Positions 2,663 to 29,660 of a stretch of 30,330 nucleotides of DNA are shown here, in pieces. Under the pieces are notes generated by a model. That model worked only from the letters and a program-made list of their open reading frames with translations. It did not search any database and was not told the DNA's origin. The stretch is taken from contig JACPAW010000141.1 of assembly GCA_016180605.1 (NCBI GenBank), positions 1-30,330 on the forward strand, read 5' to 3'. Position numbers and translations under genes: made by a program. Numbering within the stretch: position 1 is the stretch's first letter; each line of letters begins with the position of its first letter. The DNA comes from Candidatus Omnitrophota bacterium (GTDB lineage Bacteria; Omnitrophota; Gorgyraeia; Aquiviventales; Aquiviventaceae).

Positions 2663-3847
2663 TCAGTTTAACTGGCGCCAACTGAGGACAACTACCTGGA
2701 TGGGATTGCTGTTCCTGGCGGGATTCAGGGCATCATCGTAAATGTTCAAGGCTTCATCGTAGTGGACATCAGCACTTCCCCGAACGATGATTTCGCGGCC
2801 AATCACGGCGCCATAGAGATCGCCGTTGCCGAGGATTTCGACTGTTGCGTCGGGGGCGTTCAACTTTGCAAAAAGATCGGCATCTCCACCCATCGAGACG
2901 CGTAAACCCTTCACATGGAGAGTGAGATTCGTGGGAAGCTTTTCCGCAGTCTCAATTCCTCCCTTTCCAGAAACCTGAATATCCTCTTCCACATACACTT
3001 GGGCAGGTCCGATAAAGACCAGCTTGCCATGTCCTGAAATGCGAATCTCACGAAATCGATAGAGACCACCCTCCAATGCCACCACTTCATGTCCTGAAAT
3101 TAAAAGGCGCCCACCGTCGGGAAGCTGGGGCATCTCTACCGGCTCTAGCGCGGTCCCAACCTCCGCTACACGGACTTCACCCTCAATCCATGACCAGGTC
3201 TTTGATGTCTGCCAGAGGGTTTTCTCCGGATCGCTGCCTGGACCTAAGATCACATCCCCAAGGATGGCGACTCTACCCATGAGAGCCACCGCTTTTCTCT
3301 CATGCCCATTGGTCACAACCTGAAGGTTCCCTCGACTCTCCTTGAGACCGTACGATCCTTGACGCGAGTTGTAGCTATCCACCCTTACTCCCCTTTCGTC
3401 CTCCTCCGTATCATCGCCAAAACTGTCAAATCGGATGGATCGCTCACCTAATACCCCATAGCCAGGACCGGCAACTTTCACCCTCTGGACTATCGCTTCG
3501 ATCGTTCTTGAGGTATAGCCGAAGGCTGTCGGATCGTTTGAGGGGTAAAAACCTGTTGCCCGAACTCTCCACTGAGAAGACTGCGCTGGACCCACCCAAA
3601 TGGAATACCCACCGGAACCGTTTTCAATATCCGTATAGTCCACACCCATGTAATCGGGATCTTCCTTCAGCGAGTGAATCGCCACGTCAAGACCAGCCTC
3701 GCTTAGGTAAAATGCCTTCATCTGATGCCAGTCCCTTAGAGTAGCCCGCTGTGCCACTGTGGAGTAGGTCAGCAAGCCGCCGCTCCAGACCAGCAAGGTT
3801 CCTGCCATCACCAATGAAAATATGAGTGCGCTCCCGTGTCCGTTCAC
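2663..3847 (-). CDS. PilX/PilK-like type IV minor pilin with C-terminal beta-rich domain
   Basis: Short leader then G|SALIFSLVM hydrophobic helix (prepilin-like); KAFYLSEAGL motif typical of PilX N-termini; C-terminal IIVRGSADVHYDEAL. Confidence 0.75.
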   Translation of the reverse strand: MNGHGSALIFSLVMAGTLLVWSGGLLTYSTVAQRATLRDWHQMKAFYLSEAGLDVAIHSLKEDPDYMGVDYTDIENGSGGYSIWVGPAQSSQWRVRATGFYPSNDPTAFGYTSRTIEAIVQRVKVAGPGYGVLGERSIRFDSFGDDTEEDERGVRVDSYNSRQGSYGLKESRGNLQVVTNGHERKAVALMGRVAILGDVILGPGSDPEKTLWQTSKTWSWIEGEVRVAEVGTALEPVEMPQLPDGGRLLISGHEVVALEGGLYRFREIRISGHGKLVFIGPAQVYVEEDIQVSGKGGIETAEKLPTNLTLHVKGLRVSMGGDADLFAKLNAPDATVEILGNGDLYGAVIGREIIVRGSADVHYDEALNIYDDALNPARNSNPIQVVVLSWRQLN

Positions 3848-3907
3848 CCGCCAGTCCCCCTGTCTTTTTCAGGCAAGCAGAGTGAGTTTCTCTCGCACAT
3901 CCAGCGA

Positions 3908-5605
3908 TCAACGCATCGGTACGATGCGGATGGAATCCGCCCCTTTTAAGGGGATGCCAGAAATGGTCAAACCTTCCAGAATGCCTTGCGTGTCTCCTGT
4001 TTGAAACGCGGTCCGTTGGGATTCGAAATGACACACAAGATCCAAGCGGCCATCCGCGTTCACATCCTCTGGCTTACAGAACACCAGGCTCTGTTCCGTT
4101 CCCAGCCGGCCGAACGTCAACGTGCTCTGCTTGACCACCTCCGGTGCCTTAAATCGATTGGTTGATAGGATAGCCACAGGAATCTTTCCCGGACTTTTTG
4201 GATTGATGGGATTCTCAAGCGACCCTGGCTTGATGTCAATGGGAACACTCAGGGGAGCTTGGGTGGGTTGGATGGCATATTGCAATAGCATAAGATCCGA
4301 TTGTCCCTCAACGTTACCCCCTTCCGAAAAGCTCTTCGAGTCACCGACTGCGTAAAGGTAAGACCCAACACGTTGTACTGCCCATGCGACATCATTTTCT
4401 CTGCCACCGTAGTAATGGGTTGAAAAGATCGAACCATCGGCCGGATTCAATTCCAACAAGAACGCGTCTTGCTTGCCGACTCCAAAACTGGAAGTGGTAC
4501 CTACGACGTAGAGTCGCTGGTTCTCCGGCGCGGTGCGGGCATGGTCATTCACGGTAACCCCGTAGGCTTGATCATCCGCTGGCCCACCCCACGTTTTACT
4601 CCATAAGAGATTTCCGGACTCATCATATTTCAGTATGACACCATCCATACCGCCGTTTGGACCATTCTTGATCGTTCCCACCACGTAGAGGTCCACCGCC
4701 GTAGATTGATACCGCTTTGAGGAAACCAGCGCCATTGCTCCACGCCATCCGGGAATAAAACCAGGATGGCTGCGGACCCAGATGAGGTTGCCCACATCGT
4801 CGTATTTCCACAACGCGATTTTCATAGCGTTGGAATCCGTGTAGGGATAATGGGTCATCCCGGCAACGTAGACGTAGCCGTTGAGGTTAGTGGCCGCACT
4901 CCCAAAACTGCTCATGAACCATCCCGTGTTGCCTAACACACGACTCCATCGCAGGGTGCCGGAGCCATCGTACTGGGCAAGAACGGCTGCGTTGTTTGCC
5001 CCGTTGGCCTGCGCGTAACCCGATGCATAGATGTAATGAGAGGCGCCGCTGCGGTCCGGCCCGTAGGTTACCGCTAAGAAGGATTCATTGCCTCGGTAGG
5101 TGAAGAAATTAGGCTTCGCCAACCATTCTGCTCCTCCAACACTGGACCCTGTAGCTCCCGTGAGTGGAAATTTAACCAGCACGCTTTTGTGTTCCTTTCC
5201 CCCAAATCCGTCTTCCGTCTGTGACCAGCTGCGGCCAGCAAAAAAGACTCCCCCTCGAGTTCCCACAACAGAGTCAAATACTTCGCTATTGACGTTGCCG
5301 GAACCATTGGCAACGTGAGGCCAGTAAGCTGTCCACTCCAGCTGCGGCGAACCATCCTTCGAAGAGAGCGTGTAGTGAAGCCCAATGGACTGACCCCTCA
5401 GAAGCGTTTCATCGACTCCGGAGAGATACACATCCGAGGCGTTGTGATAGGAAATTGCCGTTCCACGCTGGTTACCGCTACCCCCGTAAAGTACGGCCTT
5501 CTGAAATTTCACTCCCCCGTTTTCCTCCGCGTTACCGATCAAACCCCCTCCAAAGAAAACGACCGATGCAAAAAGCAGTCTGGCAATGCAAGGTATCCCC
5601 TTCAT
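3908..5605 (-). CDS. Secreted beta-propeller repeat protein with C-terminal IDIKPGS domain
   Basis: Signal-peptide-like N-terminus. Repeated G.VYVAG/LYVVG...KYD.SG.L.W blades. C-terminal IDIKPGSLENPINPKS...DVNADGRLDLVCHF (Ca-binding loop-like). SD GGGAGGG. Confidence 0.75.
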   Translation of the reverse strand: MKGIPCIARLLFASVVFFGGGLIGNAEENGGVKFQKAVLYGGSGNQRGTAISYHNASDVYLSGVDETLLRGQSIGLHYTLSSKDGSPQLEWTAYWPHVANGSGNVNSEVFDSVVGTRGGVFFAGRSWSQTEDGFGGKEHKSVLVKFPLTGATGSSVGGAEWLAKPNFFTYRGNESFLAVTYGPDRSGASHYIYASGYAQANGANNAAVLAQYDGSGTLRWSRVLGNTGWFMSSFGSAATNLNGYVYVAGMTHYPYTDSNAMKIALWKYDDVGNLIWVRSHPGFIPGWRGAMALVSSKRYQSTAVDLYVVGTIKNGPNGGMDGVILKYDESGNLLWSKTWGGPADDQAYGVTVNDHARTAPENQRLYVVGTTSSFGVGKQDAFLLELNPADGSIFSTHYYGGRENDVAWAVQRVGSYLYAVGDSKSFSEGGNVEGQSDLMLLQYAIQPTQAPLSVPIDIKPGSLENPINPKSPGKIPVAILSTNRFKAPEVVKQSTLTFGRLGTEQSLVFCKPEDVNADGRLDLVCHFESQRTAFQTGDTQGILEGLTISGIPLKGADSIRIVPMR

Positions 5606-5644
5606 GGTGATTCCCCTCCCGCGTAACCTTTCCCGACCGGGTAT

Positions 5645-5677
5645 AAAAAATCCCCATCCGAACCACTCGGATAGGGA
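5645..5677 (-). terminator. Intrinsic terminator in the leader of 3908..5605 (riboswitch expression platform)
   Basis: UCCCUAUCCGA-GUGGU-UCGGAUGGGGA (11-bp stem) followed by U6. Confidence 0.85.
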
Positions 5678-5707
5678 CTTCTGCGGTGGTTAAGGCACTT
5701 CCTCTCT

Positions 5708-5797
5708 GTTTCGGCAGCTAGGCTACCTTGGCGCATGCTGTAGGCCCTATGGCTTTGCGACCCTGCCTTTCGGCACCCGCCGCATCGTTTCAGCGGG
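5708..5797 (-). ncRNA. c-di-GMP-I (GEMM-I)-like riboswitch aptamer with divergent 5' half
   Basis: UGCC-GAAA-GGCA hairpin, GGGUCGCAAAGCC junction, AUAGGGCCUA...AGGUAGCCUAGCUGCCG P3 arm. Lies upstream of a terminator and of surface/pilus genes. Confidence 0.75.
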
Positions 5798-5922
5798 CCC
5801 GCCACGATCTGTGGCGCAGGTGTGCTCTTATCGTTCAGAGCTCTTACGAACCGAAAACGCTGAGGGCAGTCTTTGAGGGCAATCAATCACTGAAGGCTTG
5901 TCTGAGGGTTATTACTTCTCCA

Positions 5923-5951
5923 ACCTTACCTGACCCAACAATAAAAAGCAA
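5923..5951 (-). promoter_or_regulatory. candidate sigma70 promoter for the riboswitch-containing leader
   Basis: TTGCTT (5951-5946), 17 nt, TAAGGT (5928-5923). Confidence 0.4.
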
Positions 5952-5970
5952 GAGGGGGGTGAATTCGAAT

Positions 5971-5994
5971 TTCACTCCTTGGTGTAGGCGCCGA
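5971..5994. repeat. 24-bp direct repeat, copy 1 (att-like)
   Basis: TTCACTCCTTGGTGTAGGCGCCGA is 22/24 identical to 12232-12255. Confidence 0.75.
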
Positions 5995-6018
5995 AACCTT
6001 AATCCGCACGCGGCTGTG

Positions 6019-9000
6019 TCAGGGAATTACTTCCATCTGCCCGCCGCGGGTACGGATGCGCCCGACGCCGACAGGATTTGCCGGCGGCACATCGCTGGCG
6101 CGATAACTCAGTGCGTTTGGATCGTTCCAGGGAAAGCCTTGGACGCCAAACTGGAAATTCCCCCGATATACCGATGCCGCAGGCTGCCGGTTCGAATCGG
6201 GCACAAAAGTCAGGCAGCCGGGATTCGCACCGCAGTTGGGTAAGAGTTTCAGCCAGCCGAAACCGAGCGCGATATCCCGGCCATCGGTTGGCGTGCGGAC
6301 CGGAGCTGTGCCTACACGCGCGATGAGATACCAAGGGTTCAGCGTCCATCCCCCATCCGGGAAGTTGTTCACGCCGAACCAGCCCTGTTGGCTTGGCTGA
6401 GTGGGATCGAATACAAAATCGAAAAAGCCGCTGCGGAACCGAATCCAGCCCTTGCCAAGGTTAACCGTGTAGGAACCACTCTGATTCGGCCCGTTAAGGA
6501 CGATCACAAAATCGGACTCATTGAGAATGGCTGGATGTCCGAAATCGTGCGTGCCGAACAGCACGGTCTGACTGGGTTGCGAAAGGTCCGGCTCGAAGCC
6601 TCCGTCAGGTGTCTTCCATCCATACCCCAACGAGATGGGATTCCCCTGAAAACTGCTCCGGCCAGTTTCATCCAGCACCTTGCCCAACGCGAATACTTGG
6701 TAGCCGTATGAGAACAGGCGCGATGCATCGGCATAAGGCCTGATTCCGTAATCCGCGCTGACCGTATTGCTCACTATCCATTTCCCAACTTCCGCACGGG
6801 CTTTGATGCGGACCCGGCCATTCGTGAAATTTCCTAAACCAGGAACAACCCCTCCGGGCACAAGAACCGGTGAGCTGCCAGTTGGATCCGGCGGTATCGA
6901 GCCATCCGTTGAAACGGTGTAGCGGATGATAGCGCCCTCTGTCGGGGTATCGACGCGTATCGTAAGCGGTCCTTGGTATTGTCCTGCAGGTGGGTTAAAT
7001 GCCGGCGCATTCGCAAGTGCCGGTGTTATACCCGAGAAGAGGTAACGCTGCGGAATCGGACTCTGCGGCGTTGAGGGACTCTTCCAATGCAGAAAAATGT
7101 TTCCTCCCCAATCGATATTGTGGAACTCGACTGTAATGGGATATTTGACGCCGGCTTGCAGATTTGCCATTGCATAGAGCGGATCGTTGTTCGTATACGG
7201 CCATAGATCCATTAGTAACTGACCGTTGAGCCAGAAGCGGATGCCATGGCCTGCCGCTGCCCAGAACGTGTAGGGTTCTGAATGCTGCGGTGAAAGCCAT
7301 CCCGTCCACCGTACGCTGAAATGCTCCTCTGGAATAAGCGGATCGGGCCTTCCCTCTCCCCACACGAAGTCGATCGTCGGATCGATGCGTTGGGTACTGG
7401 GTTGGCCGGGCCGCTCCGTCAGTTCTTCGTTGCTGAAATACCTCCCAAGCAGCCCATCTCCCATAGGCGAAGGATTATTGGTGATCGTGTACTGAACCGT
7501 CATCACCGGACTCACGACCGCTCCGTTAAGGCTTACCGCCACGGCCTTCAATACCCAGGTTCCGAGTTGGTCTAAGAGTATGGGACCTGTATAGGCTTGC
7601 CCTACGGTGGCTGAAGGAGCGGTGCCATCGATCGTGTAGCGGATCATGGCCTGAGGACCTGTTGCCCGCGTCAAATGAACGGAGATCGGCCCATCGAAGC
7701 TTCCCGGAGGAGGTGCTGCAATGGGCTGCCCCATCCGACCAGACCTCAGTTGCACCAAATCTACGCTTACGATGGATGGAGGGTGCATCAGTAAAGTGGG
7801 GTTTCTGGCCAGGTTCTCGTCAACCGTACCGTTGCCCAACAGGCCATAGAGGTTTGCGCCCCACGTACGCACATCATAGAGACTCGACATGGCCAAAACA
7901 CCGGTACTGCTGGATACCAATTGGAAAATCCAAGGTATTCCGGGAATGAAAGTCGGTCGCAGTATCGGATCCCAAGGTGCCGTTCCCACTTGACCTGCTC
8001 CTACTTGGCCGAACGTTTTATCTCCCCATCCAAGCAGGCCTCCACCGGCGCTATTCCAGGCCAGGCTGTGAGAGCGTCCAGCAGATATCAGCGAGTAGCT
8101 GACGTAGGGCGATGACCCTATCACGCGAACTGGTGTCGAACGAGCGGTCACGCGGGTTCCGTCTCCTAGCTGTGCTGAAGTATTCCGCCCCCACGCCCAT
8201 ACCCCGCCATCCGAAGCCAGCACGTGGTAGGCGCCTGCCGCAATGGAACGGATGTTCTGCAGACTATTGACACGCACGGGCACGGCACTGAAACTGATAC
8301 CGCCCATACCGAGTTGACCGTAGCTGTTATCCCCCCACGTCCATACCGTACCGTCCGTTTTCAGTGCCACGCTGAAATCATCCCCGGCCGCCAATGCTTT
8401 GACTCCTGAGAAACCGACAATGAGAACCGGTATGGCGCTATCCGTCATCGTTCCATTGCCGAGCTGGCCGGAGCGGTTGTGGCCCCACGTCCATACCGTG
8501 CCATCTGTTTTGATTGCCAAGCTGTGCGTTGTCCCAGCGGCAACGAGACTCACGTTATTCAACCCAGCCACCGGCACCGGTTCGCGCCGATCCGTCGTGG
8601 AATTATCGCCCAACTGGCCGTAACGGTTGGATCCCCACGCCCATACCGTCCCATCCTGCTTGACCGCAAGGCTGTGGGCGCCACCGCCGGCTACTTGCTT
8701 TACTCCATTGAGCCCGCTGACCATCACCGGTTTGGATCGAAATAAAATCGATGGGTGAGCCGGGGAACCATTGCCCAACTGGCCATAACCGTTGTGGCCC
8801 CACGTCCACACACGCCCAAGATGGGTCAACGCCAAAAAGTGGTCGCCTCCTGCAGCGACTTGCACCACCCATTCCTCAGGGAAAATCACATCTGCCGGAG
8901 GTCCCAACAATTCGACGGTATCCACGTAGAATGGCCCAGGCAGCGAGCCGGAGGTCCAAGCCTTGAAATAAAGATCGGTCAGGCGCTCTGAATCTGAGAA

Positions 9001-9453
9001 CACGACATGATCGGATGGTTTAATCGTAAGCGTTTGACAACCCTGACCGGGTGTCAGAATCGGCGTATTGGCATTATAGGCGCTGACATTCGTATCGTTC
9101 TCTCGGCCAAACTGCAAACCGACGAGACCACCTGCTCCACGAATCTGGAACCGAACCGCTGTGATTTGCGAAGCGGGTACCGGATTGTTCCAGTGCAGAC
9201 GCATCGCCCCCCAATTGCGGGGCTGGCCGCTGAAGGAATACTGCCCGGAACAGGGGTTCTGCGGGTCTTGCTCGTTGAAGGTGTTCTTCGTGCAGGTGCT
9301 ACTGCTTGTGTCGCACGACCAGTTTTCCCAAGCAGGGTTCAGACGGTCATCGTAAACGGTGATATCGGCTAAACAATGAGGAGTCGCCCAACCTAAGAGA
9401 GCTGCCCCGATTAGAACCTTAAGTCCTGCACGATGTCCCCCGCTGCTTCTCAT
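6019..9453 (-). CDS. Large secreted multidomain protein: CBM-like domain, 7 RCC1 repeats, Fn3-associated/CHB_HEX_C-like domain, PA14, second Fn3-associated domain, novel C-terminal repeat domain
   Basis: Signal peptide. Seven AAG.HSLA...G.VW.WG.N..GQLG repeats. APPPGSF...IRYTIDGTAP and FNPPAGQY...IRYT motifs. GLLGRYF...RIDPTIDF.W...FSVRWTG (PA14). SD GGAGGGG before ATG 9453. Confidence 0.85.
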   Translation of the reverse strand: MRSSGGHRAGLKVLIGAALLGWATPHCLADITVYDDRLNPAWENWSCDTSSSTCTKNTFNEQDPQNPCSGQYSFSGQPRNWGAMRLHWNNPVPASQITAVRFQIRGAGGLVGLQFGRENDTNVSAYNANTPILTPGQGCQTLTIKPSDHVVFSDSERLTDLYFKAWTSGSLPGPFYVDTVELLGPPADVIFPEEWVVQVAAGGDHFLALTHLGRVWTWGHNGYGQLGNGSPAHPSILFRSKPVMVSGLNGVKQVAGGGAHSLAVKQDGTVWAWGSNRYGQLGDNSTTDRREPVPVAGLNNVSLVAAGTTHSLAIKTDGTVWTWGHNRSGQLGNGTMTDSAIPVLIVGFSGVKALAAGDDFSVALKTDGTVWTWGDNSYGQLGMGGISFSAVPVRVNSLQNIRSIAAGAYHVLASDGGVWAWGRNTSAQLGDGTRVTARSTPVRVIGSSPYVSYSLISAGRSHSLAWNSAGGGLLGWGDKTFGQVGAGQVGTAPWDPILRPTFIPGIPWIFQLVSSSTGVLAMSSLYDVRTWGANLYGLLGNGTVDENLARNPTLLMHPPSIVSVDLVQLRSGRMGQPIAAPPPGSFDGPISVHLTRATGPQAMIRYTIDGTAPSATVGQAYTGPILLDQLGTWVLKAVAVSLNGAVVSPVMTVQYTITNNPSPMGDGLLGRYFSNEELTERPGQPSTQRIDPTIDFVWGEGRPDPLIPEEHFSVRWTGWLSPQHSEPYTFWAAAGHGIRFWLNGQLLMDLWPYTNNDPLYAMANLQAGVKYPITVEFHNIDWGGNIFLHWKSPSTPQSPIPQRYLFSGITPALANAPAFNPPAGQYQGPLTIRVDTPTEGAIIRYTVSTDGSIPPDPTGSSPVLVPGGVVPGLGNFTNGRVRIKARAEVGKWIVSNTVSADYGIRPYADASRLFSYGYQVFALGKVLDETGRSSFQGNPISLGYGWKTPDGGFEPDLSQPSQTVLFGTHDFGHPAILNESDFVIVLNGPNQSGSYTVNLGKGWIRFRSGFFDFVFDPTQPSQQGWFGVNNFPDGGWTLNPWYLIARVGTAPVRTPTDGRDIALGFGWLKLLPNCGANPGCLTFVPDSNRQPAASVYRGNFQFGVQGFPWNDPNALSYRASDVPPANPVGVGRIRTRGGQMEVIP

Positions 9454-9490
9454 CGTCCCCTCCAGGTTGGCCAAACGGCTAGTTATGTCT

Positions 9491-9519
9491 ATTCTTCAAT
9501 AATATTGATAAAATGTCAA
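9491..9519 (-). promoter_or_regulatory. promoter of the RCC1/PA14 gene with TTGA-N7-TCAA palindrome over the -35
   Basis: TTGACA (9519-9514), 17 nt, AAGAAT (weak -10). Palindromes TTGACATTTTATCAA and TCAATAATATTGA (9496-9508). Confidence 0.5.
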
Positions 9520-9571
9520 GTAACAAACGGCGAAGGAACGAAGGAGCTAGTGGCCAGAGAGTGAGGAGCTT

Positions 9572-11206
9572 TTATGCAACGACGTCAGACGTCGGAGCGG
9601 AAGAAGCAGGCAGGATCACCCGTACGGAAGTGCCGATGCCAAACCGGCTGGCGATGTGAATGGCACCCCCATGATTCTGAACGATGTTATGGGCGATGGC
9701 CAATCCAAGACCGGTGCCGTATTCCTTTCTACTGAAGAAAGGATCGAAAATGTGCGCCAGATCTTCTTCGCGAATTCCAATACCGGTGTCCGAAATCTGC
9801 AGGTGTACTTTTCCTTCACTATCCGCCCCCCAAACGGACAGGCTCAGCGTTCCGCCTTCCGGCATCGCTTGAACCGCATTCATCAATAAATTAATGACCA
9901 CTTGCTTCATCTGGGAGGGATCGACAAAAACGGAAGGAGTATCCTCGTAGTGCCGGGCGATCTTGATTTTTCTATCGGCGCATATCCTGGCAAGCAAATG
10001 AACAATCTCCTCGATGAGCATCTTGAGGGAAACCGATTTGGGTTGCAGAGGATGCGGTTTGGCAAAGTCAAGCAACTGCTTGAGGATGTCATTGACTCTT
10101 TCCACTTCGGTAATCACCACGTCCCGAAATTCATGTCGGAATTCCGGCTCGTCATACCGGCTGGGAAGATATTCGGCGAAGATGCGGATTGCGGTCAGCG
10201 GGTTCTTGATCTCATGCGCCATGCCGGCAGCCAACGTGGCCACGGCTTTCATGCGTTCCGCATGAATCAGCTCGTGCCGCATGGTCATGTTTTCCGTGGA
10301 GAGTTCGGCAATGCTCTTGCCGAAGACCGTACGATCGATGAAACGGCTCAATCCATTTCGCAGCGGGTTGAATAAAACGGCCACAGTCAAGCCAGCAAAC
10401 AGCGAACCCACCAAAGAGCTGTAGCCGATAAGCCGCGCCAAAAGCTTTTCCGAGATAATGATAAACGCACCATAGGTTACCGTCAAAAACAGGGTCAGCA
10501 ATGCGTAAAGGGCCGTCTTCCGGATGATCCAATTCAGGCCCAGTATGTCATGCTTCAAAATCAGGTAAGAAGACGTGACCAGGTAAAAGGTCACGCCCAA
10601 ATTCGCCCCCAGCATTGAGGGAAATGCATCCTGAAAGAGAAGCCAGTTGCTCCAGGCCGCCGGCCAGCCAATCCATCCCACCATGAGGAAATACCGAATG
10701 CGCGTTTTCAGCGGCTCCCCTACCCTCTTTATCCGGCTAGCGGCAAAACGAAGAGTCACGATCACGTAATAGACTTCAATCGCGATAAAAACAAGGAGCC
10801 AGACTGTTCCATGCGGATAGAGCGGCAGTGGCGGCTTAGGACGCGGCGTTTCCAGAAATACCTGGTTGGCATTGAGCACGACCAGCAGCGCGCTGAGGAT
10901 ATAGCCAACCACCAAGTGCTTGCGATAAGCATCCCTGCTGTTGAAAAACACCAATGCGAAATGCAGCATGACCGTAGGCACAAAACAAGCAGGATAAAGC
11001 AGAAATTGAACCCACCATAGAACGGCCTCCGCCTGCGTCTGGTGAATGGCAATAAGGGAAGCAGCCGCCCACCAGGAAACAAACAACAAGAGAAATGCAT
11101 AAGCCAGGTGGATCGGATTGCGGGTTCTGCGGGCGAGGATGACAAACGCCAGAATGAACGCAAAGAGCGCGTTGACTAGAAATGTCGCTGCGTATAAGGT
11201 AGGCAT
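9572..11206 (-). CDS. Membrane sensor histidine kinase with N-terminal 7TM region (NtrB-like HisKA + HATPase_c)
   Basis: Multiple TM helices; H-box AGMAHEIKNPLTAI; N-box QVVINLLMNAVQA; G1 DTGIGI; F-box FDPFFS; G2 GTGLGL. Confidence 0.92.
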   Translation of the reverse strand: MPTLYAATFLVNALFAFILAFVILARRTRNPIHLAYAFLLLFVSWWAAASLIAIHQTQAEAVLWWVQFLLYPACFVPTVMLHFALVFFNSRDAYRKHLVVGYILSALLVVLNANQVFLETPRPKPPLPLYPHGTVWLLVFIAIEVYYVIVTLRFAASRIKRVGEPLKTRIRYFLMVGWIGWPAAWSNWLLFQDAFPSMLGANLGVTFYLVTSSYLILKHDILGLNWIIRKTALYALLTLFLTVTYGAFIIISEKLLARLIGYSSLVGSLFAGLTVAVLFNPLRNGLSRFIDRTVFGKSIAELSTENMTMRHELIHAERMKAVATLAAGMAHEIKNPLTAIRIFAEYLPSRYDEPEFRHEFRDVVITEVERVNDILKQLLDFAKPHPLQPKSVSLKMLIEEIVHLLARICADRKIKIARHYEDTPSVFVDPSQMKQVVINLLMNAVQAMPEGGTLSLSVWGADSEGKVHLQISDTGIGIREEDLAHIFDPFFSRKEYGTGLGLAIAHNIVQNHGGAIHIASRFGIGTSVRVILPASSAPTSDVVA

Positions 11207-11214
11207 GAGTGAAG

Positions 11215-11243
11215 TTGATCTTTTATCATTATATCGCTACACT
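11215..11243 (+). promoter_or_regulatory. sigma70 promoter of the XRE-cupin/RR pair, overlapping a divergent -10 for the kinase
   Basis: TTGATC (11215-11220), 17 nt, TACACT (11238-11243). Minus-strand TATAAT at 11233-11228. Confidence 0.6.
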
Positions 11244-11263
11244 AAAAATACAGGTGGGTGAAT

Positions 11264-11818
11264 ATGAAAGGTTTGGGGGAACGCATTCGGATGCTTCGCA
11301 AGAGCCGTGGGCTTACTTTGGCTGCGGTTTCCAAAAAAACGGATATTGACCAAGCAACGCTTAGCCGGATTGAAAACGGCCAAATGACTGGGACATTACA
11401 GTCTCATGCGAAAATAGCCGACGTACTTAGCATCCGGCTGCCGGAGCTTTACGAAAACCTCACAGCCAACAACTCCGAGGGCACGACCAGAGCAAAACAT
11501 ACCGATACGTTCCTTCACGCTAAAGGCACTGTTTCCGAACTTTTGGCCGGTACGAGTCACTTAATGCACACCCGCTTGATGCCCGTGCGGCTGCGCATCA
11601 GGCCGCAGGGCCGGACGGCGACCGAGGAGTATCCAAAACCAGCCGAGCGCTTTATCTACGTATTGAAGGGAACGCTGGAAGTTCGCCTTGGCAAAGGGTC
11701 GCGGACGCTTAAGATGGGTGAAAGCTGGCTGTTTAGCGCTTCCATCCCGCATCACTTCAAAAACCGGTGGGACAAAGAAACATGGGTTTTGTCCGTTATG
11801 ACACCGGCATCCTTGTAG
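11264..11818 (+). CDS. XRE-family HTH regulator with C-terminal cupin domain
   Basis: LGERIRMLRKSRGLTL...QATLSRIENG HTH; EEY...ERFIYVLKG...GESWLFSASIPHHFKN cupin. Confidence 0.9.
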   Translation: MKGLGERIRMLRKSRGLTLAAVSKKTDIDQATLSRIENGQMTGTLQSHAKIADVLSIRLPELYENLTANNSEGTTRAKHTDTFLHAKGTVSELLAGTSHLMHTRLMPVRLRIRPQGRTATEEYPKPAERFIYVLKGTLEVRLGKGSRTLKMGESWLFSASIPHHFKNRWDKETWVLSVMTPASL

Positions 11819-11828
11819 GAGGTCTTCC

Positions 11829-12221
11829 ATGTCAACGGCACAGACCCACAAGAAATCCACGATTCTGATCTGCGATGATGAGGAAGGGGTGAGACGTTCC
11901 TTTAAGCTGATTCTATCCCCAACGTACGATGTGTGCCTGGCCAAGAGCGGACTTGAAGCGCTACGGATGCTTAAAGACAGCGCACCCCTGGCTGTCTTTC
12001 TGGACATTCGGATGCCGAAACGTCACGGACTCGATATCCTTCAACGAATTCGCAAGCTTAAACCTTCCGTCCCCGTCATCATCGTTTCGGGTTATCAGAG
12101 TGTGGATCTGGCCAACGAGGCATTCAAGTGTGGGGCTGTCGACTACATTCCCAAGCCGTTTTCGTCCAAACAGATCCTGAACGTGCTGGAAAAATTGTCG
12201 TCCGGTTCCGGCAAAATTTAG
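11829..12221 (+). CDS. Single-domain response regulator (receiver)
   Basis: LICDDEE, FLDIRMP (phospho-Asp), IIVSG, YIPKPF; no output domain. Confidence 0.92.
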   Translation: MSTAQTHKKSTILICDDEEGVRRSFKLILSPTYDVCLAKSGLEALRMLKDSAPLAVFLDIRMPKRHGLDILQRIRKLKPSVPVIIVSGYQSVDLANEAFKCGAVDYIPKPFSSKQILNVLEKLSSGSGKI

Positions 12222-12231
12222 GTGTCATTTC

Positions 12232-12255
12232 TTTACTCCTTGGCGTAGGCGCCGA
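12232..12255. repeat. 24-bp direct repeat, copy 2 (last codons of the protease gene)
   Basis: TTTACTCCTTGGCGTAGGCGCCGA, encoding ..GAYAKE* on the minus strand. Confidence 0.75.
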
Positions 12256-13195
12256 GGAACTCTCGGATGTGCTTGGAATGGATGGCGAAGTTAAGTCCCT
12301 GCCCCCCGGCCATCGCAGTCGCTAGAGCCACCATCTCCGAATCCCTATTGAGGAGTGGGCCTCCACTGCTTCCGGGATTGATCGCAGCGTCTGTTTGGAC
12401 AATCGTAAAACCCGCAAGCTTTCTTGGACTTAAATGCTCACAGGCCGGGATATTGATTTCCCCTAAATTAAGATCAGCCATGGACCGTACGGCACTGACG
12501 ACACCCCCTGAGATCGAAACGGTAAGACCCCCGGGGTTGCCAATGGCCACGACCTCGATGCCAGGATGCACCGTCTCTTCCTTGGCAAGGCCCAGGTAAT
12601 GAGGGGTGGGGGTGGGAACACGTACTAAGGCAAGATCATAACACGGATTTGTCTTAAGAACCCGCGCGGTAAAAGCACGGGAATGTTCCGGATTGATTTT
12701 TCCTGAGCTATCCGGCAGCAGAACCCGAATTTCGCGCGCGGATCCGACGACATGGTGATTGGTCACGATCAGGCCTTTGCGGCTGACTACCGCACCGCTT
12801 CCTAAACCGAACCCGCCATCATCCTGTTGAATCCCGATGAACGCCACCGCCTGAACGGCCTCGGCCAGAGTATGAGCCATGCCCTCTGCTTTTTGGGCTG
12901 CATGCCCTGCGGCGGCAGCTGGCTTTTTTTCCGAGGAAGAAGGCGTGGACTTATCCTTGGAAGGTACCCGCACAGGCACCGGTGGAGTTTCGTCGACTTC
13001 AATAGAGACGATTTCTTCCGGAGTGAAACTCACCATGCCGCCCTCCATCTGGACCACGACTTCTTGGGCAGAGCGGCGGACCACACGACCAAGCAAATGC
13101 GTGCCGTCCCTGAATCGGATCGTATCCGCAAATGAAAAAGACACGGCTGTGAAAATCAATGGGATCGAAAGATAGAATCGACTGGAAAGCTTCAA
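12233..13195 (-). CDS. Exported trypsin-like (S1C/HtrA-like) serine protease lacking PDZ
   Basis: Signal peptide; TNHHV (His), DLALVRV (Asp), DAAINPGSSGGPL (Ser). TTG start overlaps the stop of the upstream ATPase. Confidence 0.88.
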   Translation of the reverse strand: MKLSSRFYLSIPLIFTAVSFSFADTIRFRDGTHLLGRVVRRSAQEVVVQMEGGMVSFTPEEIVSIEVDETPPVPVRVPSKDKSTPSSSEKKPAAAAGHAAQKAEGMAHTLAEAVQAVAFIGIQQDDGGFGLGSGAVVSRKGLIVTNHHVVGSAREIRVLLPDSSGKINPEHSRAFTARVLKTNPCYDLALVRVPTPTPHYLGLAKEETVHPGIEVVAIGNPGGLTVSISGGVVSAVRSMADLNLGEINIPACEHLSPRKLAGFTIVQTDAAINPGSSGGPLLNRDSEMVALATAMAGGQGLNFAIHSKHIREFLGAYAKE

Positions 13196-15045
13196 CGCAA
13201 CTCCGGGGGGACAACGCGGATTAATTCTTCCAAACTCGTTTCTCCTTTACCCACCAGCTGCCAGCCCGACTGCCATAAGGTAAGCATCCCGCGGGATACG
13301 GCCGACTGCCGAATTTGAGTACTGGCGGTGTGTTTCAAAATCAGAGAACGAATGTGGTGATCCATGACCAAAAGCTCAAACACTCCGGCACGGCCGTGAT
13401 AGCCGGTGGCTTGGCATTTCCGGCAGCCGCGCGCATGCCCCAGTGGCACGGTCGCCATGGAAGCAGGAACGGAGAGGCCCATCTGGGTCAATGTCACCGG
13501 ATCCACCGAAGAGAGGGTGCGACATTCTTCGCATAGCTGCCGCATCAAGCGCTGGGAAAGGATTCCAATCAGTGTCGAGCAAAGAAGAAACGGCTCAATC
13601 CCTAAGTCCATCAGGCGCGTAATACCGCTTGCCGCATCATTGGTGTGCAATGTGGAAAGCACCAAATGACCCGTCAATGCCGCTCGCACAGCCAGATTGG
13701 CTGTCTCTTGATCGCGGATTTCGCCGACCATGACGATATCCGGATCGTGGCGAAGAACCGAGCGCAAGCCTGTGGCAAACGTCAGCCCGGTCTTGGAATG
13801 CACTTGGATCTGGGTTAAACCCGAAAGCTCATGTTCCACCGGATCCTCAATGGTGACAATATTCACGCGCCCGGTGTTCAGTTGTGTCAAAAAGGCATAA
13901 AGGCTCGTGGTTTTTCCGGAGCCGGTTGGCCCGGTGACGAGCAACAATCCTGTCGGCTTGTTCAGAAGCGTCAACAGACGTTCCTGTTGATCCGGTGTAA
14001 ATCCAAGCTGCGCGATTTGGAACATCCGTGCCGGTTCCAACAAGCGTATGGCCAAGCTTTCTCCCCGCGGCGTCGGAAGAACGGAGACGCGAAGATCCAG
14101 CTTGATGCCAGAGCGCTCAAAAAGAATTCTCCCATCTTGCGGCAATCGGTGTTCGGCAATATCGAGGTTGGCCATCACTTTAATGCGGGAGATGACACTG
14201 GCATAAAGCTCTCGAAACTGCGGTGCGGCGGGCACGGCATACAGGATGCCGTCGATCCGCTCCCGAATCCAGGGCCCCTCAGGTCCCACACCCAAATGAA
14301 GATCCGTTGCGCGATTCGTGTAGGCATGGTGGACCATTTGGTTGACCAGCCAGACGATCCCCTCTGATTCTTCTTGGACATCGCCGCTTGCTAGCTTTAT
14401 GGCAGAGGAGGGCTTGGAATGACGCACCCGGTGGGTGACTTCCGCCCCCATCCCGTAGCTTTGGCGTATGGAATCGGAAAGCTTGCCACCGATGACGGCA
14501 ACCGGCAGAAAATCGCAGCCCAAGATCACTTTCAGTTCATCCAAACGCTGTACGTCTAGGGGATCCGCCATTGCCAAGTGCAGGATGCCTTCATGCAGGG
14601 CAAGTGGAATGACTTGATAGCGCTGTGCCACCGATGCGGGGACACGCTGCAATAATTCCGGGTCGATGACCGCGTTCGTTAAATCCACTGTTTTCAGACC
14701 CATCGCGGCATAGAAGCATTGGGCGAAATCGAAGGGCTTCGTGAGATATTCGTCAGCACCCCGCTCGAAGGCCTCTCCCATCGTCTGGCTGTCGTTGAGG
14801 GCGCTGATGACAATGATCCGGGGCCGCTGTTGCAGGAGACTTAGATGGCTCAGTACTTCAAGCCCCGAACCATCGGGAAGCCGTAAATCAAGAAATACGA
14901 TTCCTACTTCGTTGTCGCGCAAATACTCCAGTGCCGCTTTGACCGTGGCCGTTATGACCACATGAAGCCCTTTGTCCTCCAGAAACGCTTTAAGCGCTTC
15001 TGACAATTTAACCTGGTCCTCTACCACCAAAACCACTTTCTCCAT
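13192..15045 (-). CDS. GspE/PilB-family pilus/secretion assembly ATPase with N-terminal receiver domain
   Basis: REC motifs VEDQ, FLDLRLP, ISA, LTKPF. Walker A GPTGSGKTT, Asp box IEDPVE, Walker B DIVMVGEIRD, His box GHLVLSTLHTND, Zn tetracysteine CEEC/CRKC. Confidence 0.9.
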   Translation of the reverse strand: MEKVVLVVEDQVKLSEALKAFLEDKGLHVVITATVKAALEYLRDNEVGIVFLDLRLPDGSGLEVLSHLSLLQQRPRIIVISALNDSQTMGEAFERGADEYLTKPFDFAQCFYAAMGLKTVDLTNAVIDPELLQRVPASVAQRYQVIPLALHEGILHLAMADPLDVQRLDELKVILGCDFLPVAVIGGKLSDSIRQSYGMGAEVTHRVRHSKPSSAIKLASGDVQEESEGIVWLVNQMVHHAYTNRATDLHLGVGPEGPWIRERIDGILYAVPAAPQFRELYASVISRIKVMANLDIAEHRLPQDGRILFERSGIKLDLRVSVLPTPRGESLAIRLLEPARMFQIAQLGFTPDQQERLLTLLNKPTGLLLVTGPTGSGKTTSLYAFLTQLNTGRVNIVTIEDPVEHELSGLTQIQVHSKTGLTFATGLRSVLRHDPDIVMVGEIRDQETANLAVRAALTGHLVLSTLHTNDAASGITRLMDLGIEPFLLCSTLIGILSQRLMRQLCEECRTLSSVDPVTLTQMGLSVPASMATVPLGHARGCRKCQATGYHGRAGVFELLVMDHHIRSLILKHTASTQIRQSAVSRGMLTLWQSGWQLVGKGETSLEELIRVVPPELR

Positions 15046-15718: not shown

Positions 15719-16510
15719 ATGAATCCTATCTGCCGGAACCTCCTTCTTGCATTTTTATTGCTGCCGGGTGGGTGCGTGCGCAGCAACTTTAACCTGGCCA
15801 CCCAGCGGGAAGAATTCACCCTGACTTCAACGGAAAGAGAAGTGGAGGCGGGTCGTGTAATCGCCCGCCGCGTAGAAGAAGACTTAGGATTAGTAGCCGA
15901 TGAATCCCTGCAGCGGCGCGTGCGCGAAATCGGAGATAAGCTGGCGGCCGTGTGCGATCGAAGGGAGTTAGTTTATTCTTTCGGTGTCGTGAGCGATGAA
16001 GAAGTGAACGCCTTTTCCTTGCCGGGAGGCTACGTGTTCGTCAATGAAGGGCTGGTCAAAAAAGCAAGCTCCGATGATGAACTCGCAGGAGTCATCGCCC
16101 ACGAAATCGCGCACATCACCGCACGCCACGCGGTTAAACGGTATGAAAGCGGCATCGGGATGCAGCTTCTGCAGCTGGCGACTTTGGTAGGACGCCAGTC
16201 AACCGTGGCAAAAGGGTTAAGCGTAGCCGCTCAGGCCGCACAGTTGGCCTATGCCCGGCAGGACGAGCTGGAAGCGGATCGGCTTGCCGTAAAATACTTG
16301 CGCGCAGCAGGTTTCAATGCGGCTGCCATGCTTACTTTTCTGGAAAAACTTCACGGGTTGGATCGGAAAAAACTGCGCTATCTTCCCCGCCACATCGTTC
16401 GTCCCCAGTATGCGCTGACGCACCCCTTCGTTCCGGAGCGAGTCCGCGCCGTAAAAGAAGCTCTTTTCGGCGTTGCGGATTATATCGATTATCTCAATAG
16501 CCCGGACTGA
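15719..16510 (+). CDS. M48-family zinc metalloprotease, probable lipoprotein
   Basis: NAFSLPGG, HEIAH (HEXXH), ELEAD, LTHP; lipobox-like LPGGC. Confidence 0.9.
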   Translation: MNPICRNLLLAFLLLPGGCVRSNFNLATQREEFTLTSTEREVEAGRVIARRVEEDLGLVADESLQRRVREIGDKLAAVCDRRELVYSFGVVSDEEVNAFSLPGGYVFVNEGLVKKASSDDELAGVIAHEIAHITARHAVKRYESGIGMQLLQLATLVGRQSTVAKGLSVAAQAAQLAYARQDELEADRLAVKYLRAAGFNAAAMLTFLEKLHGLDRKKLRYLPRHIVRPQYALTHPFVPERVRAVKEALFGVADYIDYLNSPD

Positions 16511-16530: not shown

Positions 16531-16617
16531 TTGGGACATGCTCGCCCCGGCCTCTCGTAAGAGGCGGGCCGGGGGGACAGGAGACGTGGGACATGGAAAA
16601 TCAACAACCTGTCCCCT
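16531..16617. repeat. Intergenic GGGACA(T/G)G short repeats and GC-rich hairpin between convergent genes
   Basis: TGGGACATG twice; GGGGACAGG...CCTGTCCCC inverted pair; CCCCGGCC-TCTC-GTAA-GAGG-CG-GGCCGGGG hairpin. Confidence 0.6.
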
Positions 16618-28831: not shown

Positions 28832-29479
28832 ATGGGCACATTGGTACTCATTCGGCACGGACAATCGCAGTGGAATCTGGAAAATCGATTTACCGGGTGG
28901 GTCGACATCCCACTGACGGACTCCGGGCGCATGGAGGCGCGCCGCGGGGCTGAAATCATCAAGCATCTGAAATTCGACTGCGCTTTTACCTCAGCGCTGA
29001 AGCGTGCGGAAGAAACGCTGCGCATCGTTTTAGAAACGACCCGCCAGACCCATCTTCCCATTGAAAGAGATCCTGCCTTGAATGAGCGCCACTACGGAGC
29101 TCTCCAAGGACTGAATAAAGCGGAATTGGCCAAGAAGTTCGGCGAACAACAAGTCCATATTTGGCGCCGCAGTTATGATGTCGCACCTCCTAAGGACAAA
29201 ACGGAGTGGAATCTCGATGGAAAAAGCGAAAGCTTGAAAGATACCGCAGCGCGCACGCTTCCCTACTTCAAGAAGAGGATTCTTCCTTTGGTGGAATCGG
29301 GAAAAAATGTCCTGGTGGTCGCTCATGGCAATAGTTTGCGTTCCATCATCATGGACTTGGACCGAATGACCAAGGAACAAGTGCTGCAACTGAATATCGC
29401 CACAGGGGCTCCCATCCTCTATGAAATCGATTCCACAGGACGCGTCCTTAAGAAGATCGTGACAGAACTTCCGTCTTAG
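28832..29479 (+). CDS. gpmA: 2,3-bisphosphoglycerate-dependent phosphoglycerate mutase
   Basis: LIRHGQSQWNLENRFTGWVD, LNERHYGALQGLNK, WRRSYD, ESLKDT, VAHGNSLR. SD GAGGT before ATG 28832. Confidence 0.96.
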   Translation: MGTLVLIRHGQSQWNLENRFTGWVDIPLTDSGRMEARRGAEIIKHLKFDCAFTSALKRAEETLRIVLETTRQTHLPIERDPALNERHYGALQGLNKAELAKKFGEQQVHIWRRSYDVAPPKDKTEWNLDGKSESLKDTAARTLPYFKKRILPLVESGKNVLVVAHGNSLRSIIMDLDRMTKEQVLQLNIATGAPILYEIDSTGRVLKKIVTELPS

Positions 29480-29660
29480 CACACAGCAATCAGCACACAG
29501 AGATGGCAAAATAGCAGAGTTCAAGAACCACTCCTTTGGGACAGGGGCCATGAGACATGGGACAAAAAAATCACGACATGTCCCACGCCCCATGTCCCAA
29601 AAGCTTCGTATCGCTCATGTGTCCCATGTCCTCTTCTGAGTGCTGTGTGCTGTTTGCTGA
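29478..29660. repeat. Nested inverted arrays of short repeats (CAGCACA- and GGGACATG-type)
   Basis: AGCACACAGCAATCAGCACACAG (29478-29500) mirrored by CTGAGTGCTGTGTGCTGTTTGCTGA (29636-29660). TGGGACA-type units at 29537-29564 mirrored by CATGTCCCA-type units at 29577-29631. Confidence 0.7.

Follow-up and report, generated by a model that had tools for sequence, protein, structure and literature searches.

A short duplication of a protease gene 3' end flanks a signalling and surface-protein gene block in a groundwater Omnitrophota genome

The 30,330-nt contig JACPAW010000141.1 of assembly GCA_016180605.1 (hereafter the window, meaning this whole stretch) belongs to a metagenome-assembled genome (MAG) of an Omnitrophota bacterium from groundwater, the nearest complete relatives of which are other genera. 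Within the window, a 6.2-kb gene block lies between two direct copies of a 24-nt sequence, one of which is the 3' end of a serine protease gene. An initial annotation had taken the two copies for the left and right attachment sites (attL and attR) of an island integrated into the end of this gene. All genes in and around the block were examined by Pfam annotation, and together with the other features of the locus they are as follows.

2663-5605, minus strand: left-flank operon, in which the gene of a 565-aa protein without Pfam match precedes that of a DUF7305 protein; the pairing is kept in relatives
5710-5836, minus strand: cyclic di-GMP (c-di-GMP)-I riboswitch, leading the operon of the 565-aa and DUF7305 genes
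5971-5994, minus strand: left repeat copy, non-coding, very probably a relic of the protease 3' end; position 5983 is polymorphic between strains
5995-12231: enclosed block of 6.2 kb, made of two divergent operons, with 24 nt of spacer past the RCC1/PA14 stop
6019-9474, minus strand: RCC1/PA14 protein, 1151 aa, secreted or surface, with RCC1 repeats, a CHB_HEX_C/Fn3-associated domain, PA14 and a C-terminal region without assignment
9572-11206, minus strand: histidine kinase with a seven-transmembrane (7TM) sensor (HisKA_7TM, HisKA, HATPase_c)
11258-11818, plus strand: XRE-type helix-turn-helix and cupin regulator (XRE-cupin)
11829-12221, plus strand: single-domain response-regulator receiver (REC), convergent with the protease, 11 nt from stop to stop
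12232-12255, minus strand: right repeat copy, comprising the C-terminal codons (L)GAYAKE of the S1 protease with its TAA stop, invariant in nine of nine same-species contigs
12233-13195, minus strand: S1 serine protease, trypsin-like, PDZ-less, 320 aa, the start of which overlaps the REC-PilB stop
12237-12258, plus strand: hairpin with a 9-bp stem and a 4-nt loop, formed by the right-copy palindrome and 3 nt beyond it (z = -2.0 over a 101-nt stretch)
13192-15045, minus strand: REC-MshEN-T2SSE (PilB-type) ATPase (REC-PilB)
15719-16510, plus strand: M48 peptidase, part of the right-hand synteny anchor (PabB-PurH-FolC-tautomerase-M48) common to relatives

The Pfam annotation thus bears out the cargo initially described, namely the RCC1/PA14 protein, the kinase, the XRE-cupin regulator and the receiver, with no recombinase among them.

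The left copy (5971-5994, TTCACTCCTTGGTGTAGGCGCCGA) and the right copy (12232-12255, TTTACTCCTTGGCGTAGGCGCCGA) stand in direct orientation and match at 22 of 24 positions, as direct comparison confirmed, and they form the only direct repeat of the window at or above 22/24. Read on the minus strand, the right copy encodes ...FLGAYAKE-TAA, which is the C-terminus and stop of the 320-aa protease (12233-13195), in agreement with the initial annotation. The protease orthologues of other Omnitrophota (42-51% identity) all end in ...F-x-G-x-Y-x-K-(E/D) followed by the stop, and this conservation of the terminus indicates that the right copy is the native, selected end of the gene. The left copy reads GAYTKE-TGA on the same strand, with an in-frame stop nine codons upstream and without a start codon; it is non-coding and has no gene attached, and the stop codon of the RCC1/PA14 gene (TGA, 6019-6021) is separated from it by exactly 24 nt (5995-6018), again as had been described. 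Beyond the 24 nt, no similarity to the protease was found beside the left copy, either in the DNA or in any reading frame. This abrupt end of the similarity on both sides is expected of a junction scar rather than of a decayed paralogue. In the 1.39-Mb MAG the 24-mer occurs only at these two places, and no inverted repeats were found at the block ends.

Two other origins of the pair were rejected. A decayed paralogous protease at the left site, which would have pointed to duplication and decay, was sought with the protease as query in tblastn and blastn searches of 5400-7200, and only a match of 6 residues or 21 nt was returned. An assembly artefact is excluded by independent MAGs and Logan contigs (k=31) that cross both junctions.

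The conservation of the locus within the species was followed in nine contigs, all encoding an identical receiver protein and drawn from seven Logan assemblies and two further NCBI MAGs. Gene order is unchanged in all nine, with an identity to the window of 99.4-100%. In strain GCA_016193205.1 the left copy is TTCACTCCTTGGCGTAGGCGCCGA, with C at position 5983 where the window has T, and it matches the right copy at 23/24 with an exact core of 21 nt, indicating that one of the two mismatches is a recent within-species single-nucleotide polymorphism (SNP) in the left copy. The remaining, fixed mismatch swaps the stop codons, TGA in the left copy and TAA in the right. The two mismatches had been read as the sign of an old event; since one of them is a recent strain difference, the ancestral identity was higher than the window alone suggests. 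The right copy is invariant in the nine contigs and the left copy is polymorphic, behaving like a neutral relic.

In dinucleotide shuffles of the window, a match of at least 22/24 was obtained in none of 100 cases, and second-order Markov simulations gave such a match in 2 of 300 windows. The MAG itself holds 37 unique, non-low-complexity pairs at or above 22/24, which corresponds to an empirical null of about 0.018 per 30-kb window. A chance pair is therefore improbable for one window (about 0.7-1.8%) but not extraordinary across a large scan. For the exact direct match of 21 nt found in the sister strain, the calculated chance expectation is about 1e-4 per window, and the fact that the SNP falls on a mismatch position and restores identity favours homology over chance by an estimated likelihood ratio of about 10. 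The repeat is very probably a genuine duplication.

Short repeats on one contig are common in this MAG (9 of the 37 pairs versus 0.26 expected, a 35-fold enrichment). Three further isolated direct repeats of 24-30 nt, matching at 23/24 to 24/24, 1-4 kb apart and with abrupt ends, were found on contigs C53 (196-225/1297-1326), C34 (571-596/4249-4274) and C111 (3583-3612/5802-5831). A shared phenomenon of 3'-end duplication was considered and rejected, given that the other same-contig repeats are heterogeneous (paralogues, tandem repeats and intergenic motifs) and none of them duplicates a gene 3' end. A separate motif, GGGACA...CATGTCCC, recurs in direct and inverted intergenic copies at 16575-16602, 28859-28886 and 29535-29601 of the window, and the repeat of contig C53 holds the related motif TGTCCC...GTGAC; this may be a dispersed regulatory element or one of the repetitive extragenic palindromic type.

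Every same-species assembly has the block. In three sequencing runs of the source study, contigs span both copies, and the depth of the block equals that of its flanks. No contig skipping the block (an empty site) or circularised was found in four runs, as judged from contigs only, from which rare forms would drop out, and for the same reason the absence of a circular joint from 12232 to 5994 applies to assembled contigs, which drop rare variants. The fourth run belongs to a different study and contains a relative at about 90-93% identity, in which parts of the block are present, among them a contig over 5971-6156; this indicates that the arrangement is older than that split. Left-junction fragments of closer relatives were sought with the C-terminus of the RCC1/PA14 protein, and no matches were obtained. 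The density of SNPs between strains does not step up or down at the repeat; it is in excess at 2100-2700 and 5300-5431, and elsewhere on the contig amounts to 1-3 SNPs per kb. These divergence hot spots include indel or replacement patches of 16 nt and about 30 nt at the junction of a radical-SAM N-terminus with the DUF7305 C-terminus. There is no sign that the block is mobile today.

Neither a tyrosine nor a serine recombinase was found by Pfam annotation in the block or on the whole 30-kb contig. The 76%-complete MAG yielded no serine (resolvase-type) recombinase and only two full-length tyrosine recombinases, which score as XerC and XerD equivalogs, together with integrase fragments on the 3.3-kb contig C84. 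The initial annotation had proposed a search for the 24-mer at other islands and next to integrases. The 21-24-nt core is absent from the genome, metagenome and viral contig collections searched, and no cognate integrase-bearing element of the same or related genomes that uses it was found in the MAG or in these three public collections. The composition of the block is native and ordinary: its GC content is 0.546, versus 0.534 ± 0.013 for the genome, its GC at third codon positions (GC3) is like that of its neighbours, and its tetranucleotide distance lies at the 93rd percentile of equal-sized segments. The initial annotation had proposed comparing GC and codon usage inside and outside the block; a compositional island was rejected since GC, GC3 and tetranucleotide usage give no signal. 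A transposon or insertion sequence with target-site duplication was likewise rejected, because the repeat has 24 nt (the usual length being 2-14 bp) and the block has neither terminal inverted repeats nor a transposase. In its geometry, the locus has direct repeats flanking a block, one of which forms the intact 3' end of the protease, as in an attachment-site island; it also has a displaced 3' fragment of an anchor gene directly after a non-homologous insert, with similarity lost abruptly, as in a scar of homology-facilitated illegitimate recombination (HFIR).

The cargo was then compared across the family: of 35 genomes, 18 have a homologue of XRE-cupin and 17 one of the 7TM kinase, both counts including the genome of the window. 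A receiver follows the XRE-cupin gene in eight of the 11 family loci examined, and the 7TM kinase is present at three of the 11, in two of them directly after XRE-cupin and without a receiver. In genome G050, XRE-cupin, REC and a GAF kinase lie 6-8 kb from the operon of the riboswitch and the 565-aa gene. The best orthologues are those of G009 (XRE-cupin 52%, REC 54% and kinase 43% identity), where the 7TM kinase is followed by a 2183-aa protein, convergent with XRE-cupin and then REC (L081:5936-16017, on contig C42). This secreted protein is of RHS/SpvB type (SpvB/TcdB-midN/RHS-repeat) and takes the place of the RCC1/PA14 protein, which suggests that the 7TM kinase regularly has a large secreted or surface protein as its partner, the identity of which can be exchanged. 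The G009 module is placed between UvrD/PilZ and TPR genes, a site unrelated to that of the window, and no bracketing repeats were found around it. The presence of the same four-part module at an unrelated site indicates that the parts of the block move together between genera, and the family-wide occurrence of XRE-cupin followed by REC, and of the 7TM kinase, points away from a foreign or mobile island. The block is a coherent, family-native signalling and surface-protein module that is found at different sites in different genera and is not foreign to the lineage.

The surroundings of the block were compared with those in relatives, whose proteins reach at most 62% identity (REC-PilB), 51% (protease) and 76% (565-aa protein). 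In G044, G001 and GCA_016196245.1 the right-hand synteny is kept up to M48 (PabB, PurH, FolC, M48), with the tautomerase of this stretch seen in GCA_016196245.1, and M48 is separated from the operon of the riboswitch, 565-aa gene and DUF7305 by only about 4-6 kb, filled in these genomes by genes for a PAS kinase, receivers, APS kinase, PAPS reductase, dCache, GT2 and TPR proteins. In GCA_900218045.1 the order is M48, APS kinase, PAPS reductase, a 683-aa gene, protease and ComM, and in G013 it is M48, histidine kinase, REC, REC, REC-PilB, two genes and protease. The interval from M48 to the riboswitch is therefore a mosaic, rearranged in each genus examined. The linkage of M48 with the riboswitch and the location of the protease near M48 in relatives indicate that both flanks derive from one ancestral neighbourhood, the interior of which was repeatedly remodelled.

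Some further features of this neighbourhood were recorded. The translational overlap of REC-PilB and the protease (13192-13195) is lineage-specific, with two genes standing between them in G013, and the roughly 4-16 kb around REC-PilB in G018, G017 and G009 showed no protease. The 565-aa protein is conserved at 70-76%, well above its neighbours, and is present in nine of 35 family genomes. A riboswitch of the c-di-GMP-I type precedes the 565-aa/DUF7305 operon in the window and in five of six relatives examined (L052:6527-6609 and 6948-7035; L053:6382-6465; L054:8872-8954; L055:15923-16006; L057:6207-6291), being in tandem in one relative, and many of these riboswitches score best as the GGC variant. 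In G044, a second c-di-GMP-I-GGC riboswitch (L055:11794-11893) lies directly upstream of the PAS histidine kinase beside M48, which from its position would be a riboswitch-controlled two-component kinase.

The reading that we favour, with a probability of roughly 0.55, is that the repeat is a scar, left when an old insertion or rearrangement displaced the original 3' end of the protease gene, with the mechanism left open and with HFIR as the main route that requires no integrase. In an ancestor of the species, the block (REC, XRE-cupin, 7TM kinase and RCC1/PA14) would have come to separate the protease from the c-di-GMP riboswitch leader. An intact protease end would have been kept or received at 12232-12255, and the displaced end (5971-5994) would now be decaying as non-coding sequence ahead of the riboswitch promoter region. 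By HFIR, the incoming DNA would have found a homologous anchor in the protease or in REC-PilB and would have been joined illegitimately 24 nt ahead of the resident stop codon. By a second route, of Campbell type, a circular intermediate would have entered through a single crossover over the shared stretch of about 21-24 nt, with RecA or a trans-acting recombinase as its catalyst. Both routes would give exactly the picture seen here. In either case, we infer that the block was relocated within the rearrangement-prone interval between M48 and the riboswitch.

HFIR with displaced 3' ends is known for the type VI secretion system effector-immunity arrays of Vibrio cholerae and for the orphan 3' regions of Rhs and contact-dependent inhibition loci, where the new DNA finds its homology in a conserved gene upstream and the resident 3' end comes to lie beyond the insert, with no recombinase needed (PMC5361080). 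As in those loci, a duplicated gene end brackets new genes in the window. In contrast with them, the remnant has only 24 nt, a single event is visible and not an array, no donor arrangement was found, and the cargo is a two-component and surface-protein module and not a set of toxin-immunity genes.

Several observations weigh against reading the repeat as a scar. A residual role of chance remains, given that about 1-2% of windows have such a repeat and that a large scan would pick them. The other isolated direct repeats of the MAG may allow for an unrecognised process that makes local short repeats. The nearest complete relatives have protein identities of 51-76% and are not syntenic here, and the pre-insertion site that the initial annotation had predicted, with the protease adjoining the riboswitch, is not present in any relative, which is weak evidence since these relatives are distant. 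A donor with the anchor protease beside the module was found at none of the 11 XRE-cupin loci of the family genomes, and the protease orthologues have other neighbours. Given that neither a pre-insertion genome nor a donor was found, the direction of the event (the block being the inserted part) and its mechanism are only inferred. The initial annotation had also stated that relatives which all carry the block, or a paralogous protease at the left position, would speak for duplication and decay; the former is weakly approached, in that every alignable genome has the block, and the decayed paralogue is absent.

The possibility that the 24-mers are attL and attR of integration by a tyrosine or serine recombinase, and the block an integrase-less cis-mobilizable island that a recombinase encoded elsewhere once moved or can still move, appears unlikely. 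Integrative elements at gene 3' ends, such as the streptococcal integrative and conjugative elements (ICEs) at fda and the staphylococcal cassette SCCmec at rlmH, have short flanking direct repeats and an intact target gene, and cis-mobilizable elements (CIMEs) are integrase-less ICE derivatives that have att sites and no recombination genes. The locus resembles these elements in that a discrete set of genes is flanked by direct repeats, one of which restores the end of an intact target gene; 21-24 nt is a typical length for att cores, the repeat contains a small palindrome, the module stands at a different site in another genus (G009), and integrase fragments are present on C84 of this incomplete MAG. 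Against this, a recombinase is absent from the block and the contig, the MAG yields XerC and XerD as its only full-length tyrosine recombinases and no serine recombinase, and the core, found only twice in the MAG and in none of the three collections, has no attB or attP elsewhere or beside an integrase. Unlike for CIMEs and ICEs, neither the MAG nor the public collections yielded a cognate integrase or ICE with this core. The block is native in composition, and the contigs, at even depth, show no junction from excision or from an empty site (weak evidence, since it comes from contigs only); the orthologous module of G009 also lacks bracketing repeats. The integrative mobile elements exploiting Xer (IMEX) offer another comparison, being integrase-less, with direct repeats of about 28 nt (dif-like sites), and relying on the host XerC/XerD. 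The block is likewise integrase-less and flanked by direct repeats in a MAG that encodes XerC/XerD. The repeat differs in that it has no resemblance to the conserved XerD arm of dif, as judged by eye and with the dif of the host not located, and in that it lies in a gene end and not at the terminus. Of the initial proposal, a true duplicate of a gene 3' end and an insertion-like geometry therefore stand, and nothing specific to the site-specific integration of a foreign or mobile island was found. The stronger form of this idea, in which Omnitrophota carry an integrase-less cis-mobilizable cassette (sensor kinase, regulator, receiver and giant surface protein) that hops via a core of about 21 nt copied from a gene 3' end, with a recombinase in trans, is in our view quite doubtful; if true, such a trans-mobilised cassette would explain why the module is found at unrelated sites from one genus to another.

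A chance match of the protease 3' end with unrelated intergenic sequence, selected by the scanning of many windows, is very improbable. The repeat is short, at 0.7-1.8% per window a large scan would hold many such pairs, and neither composition nor the contigs of the runs add an island signal that would corroborate an insertion. These considerations are opposed by the sister strain, where 23/24 with 21 nt exact is far rarer, by the alignment of the two copies from stop codon to stop codon with the left copy located within one of the few intergenic stretches, and by the 35-fold enrichment, which argues that local repeats are mostly real. We consider it just as improbable that the block was never inserted and that the left copy is the remnant of a second protease or of a tandem segmental duplication that was nearly deleted, or a patch of templated break repair. 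In this family the region is highly prone to gene turnover, and a paralogous S1 protease exists on contig C20 of the MAG (40% identity), which would be compatible with this history; it would nonetheless need two precise events, including a deletion ending 24 nt from the stop, there is no protease-like trace beside the left copy in any frame, and a protease is found at the left position in no relative. The least probable explanation, which we regard as highly improbable, is that the 24-mer was kept for its function, as a hairpin that ends transcripts or regulates at the 3' ends of the protease/REC pair and of the RCC1/PA14 operon. The repeat does contain the palindrome TTGGCG-TAGG-CGCCGA, and the 9-bp hairpin of the right copy begins 15 nt past the stop of the convergent receiver gene, from which position it may be a transcript-end hairpin between convergent genes. 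The left copy, 24 nt past a stop codon, has a weak hairpin and a T-rich run downstream of it. Its own stem is shorter, however, and broken in this strain by the SNP at 5983, its fold (z = +1.2) is no better than that of shuffles, and a minus-strand scan called no canonical terminator there; moreover, the MAG has just two copies and the public collections have none, and the conserved protein terminus already explains the right copy.

The locus is an ordinary footprint of genome rearrangement and represents no new kind of mobile element or mechanism. If the repeat is indeed the scar of an insertion, it dates and locates one change of gene order in an uncultivated, small-genome lineage of Omnitrophota, in which a phospho-regulated PilB/protease operon and an operon controlled by a c-di-GMP riboswitch came to be separated by a two-component and surface-protein module. 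Such a scar would be useful for the annotation of the locus and for understanding how signalling, pilus or adhesion genes shuffle in this family.

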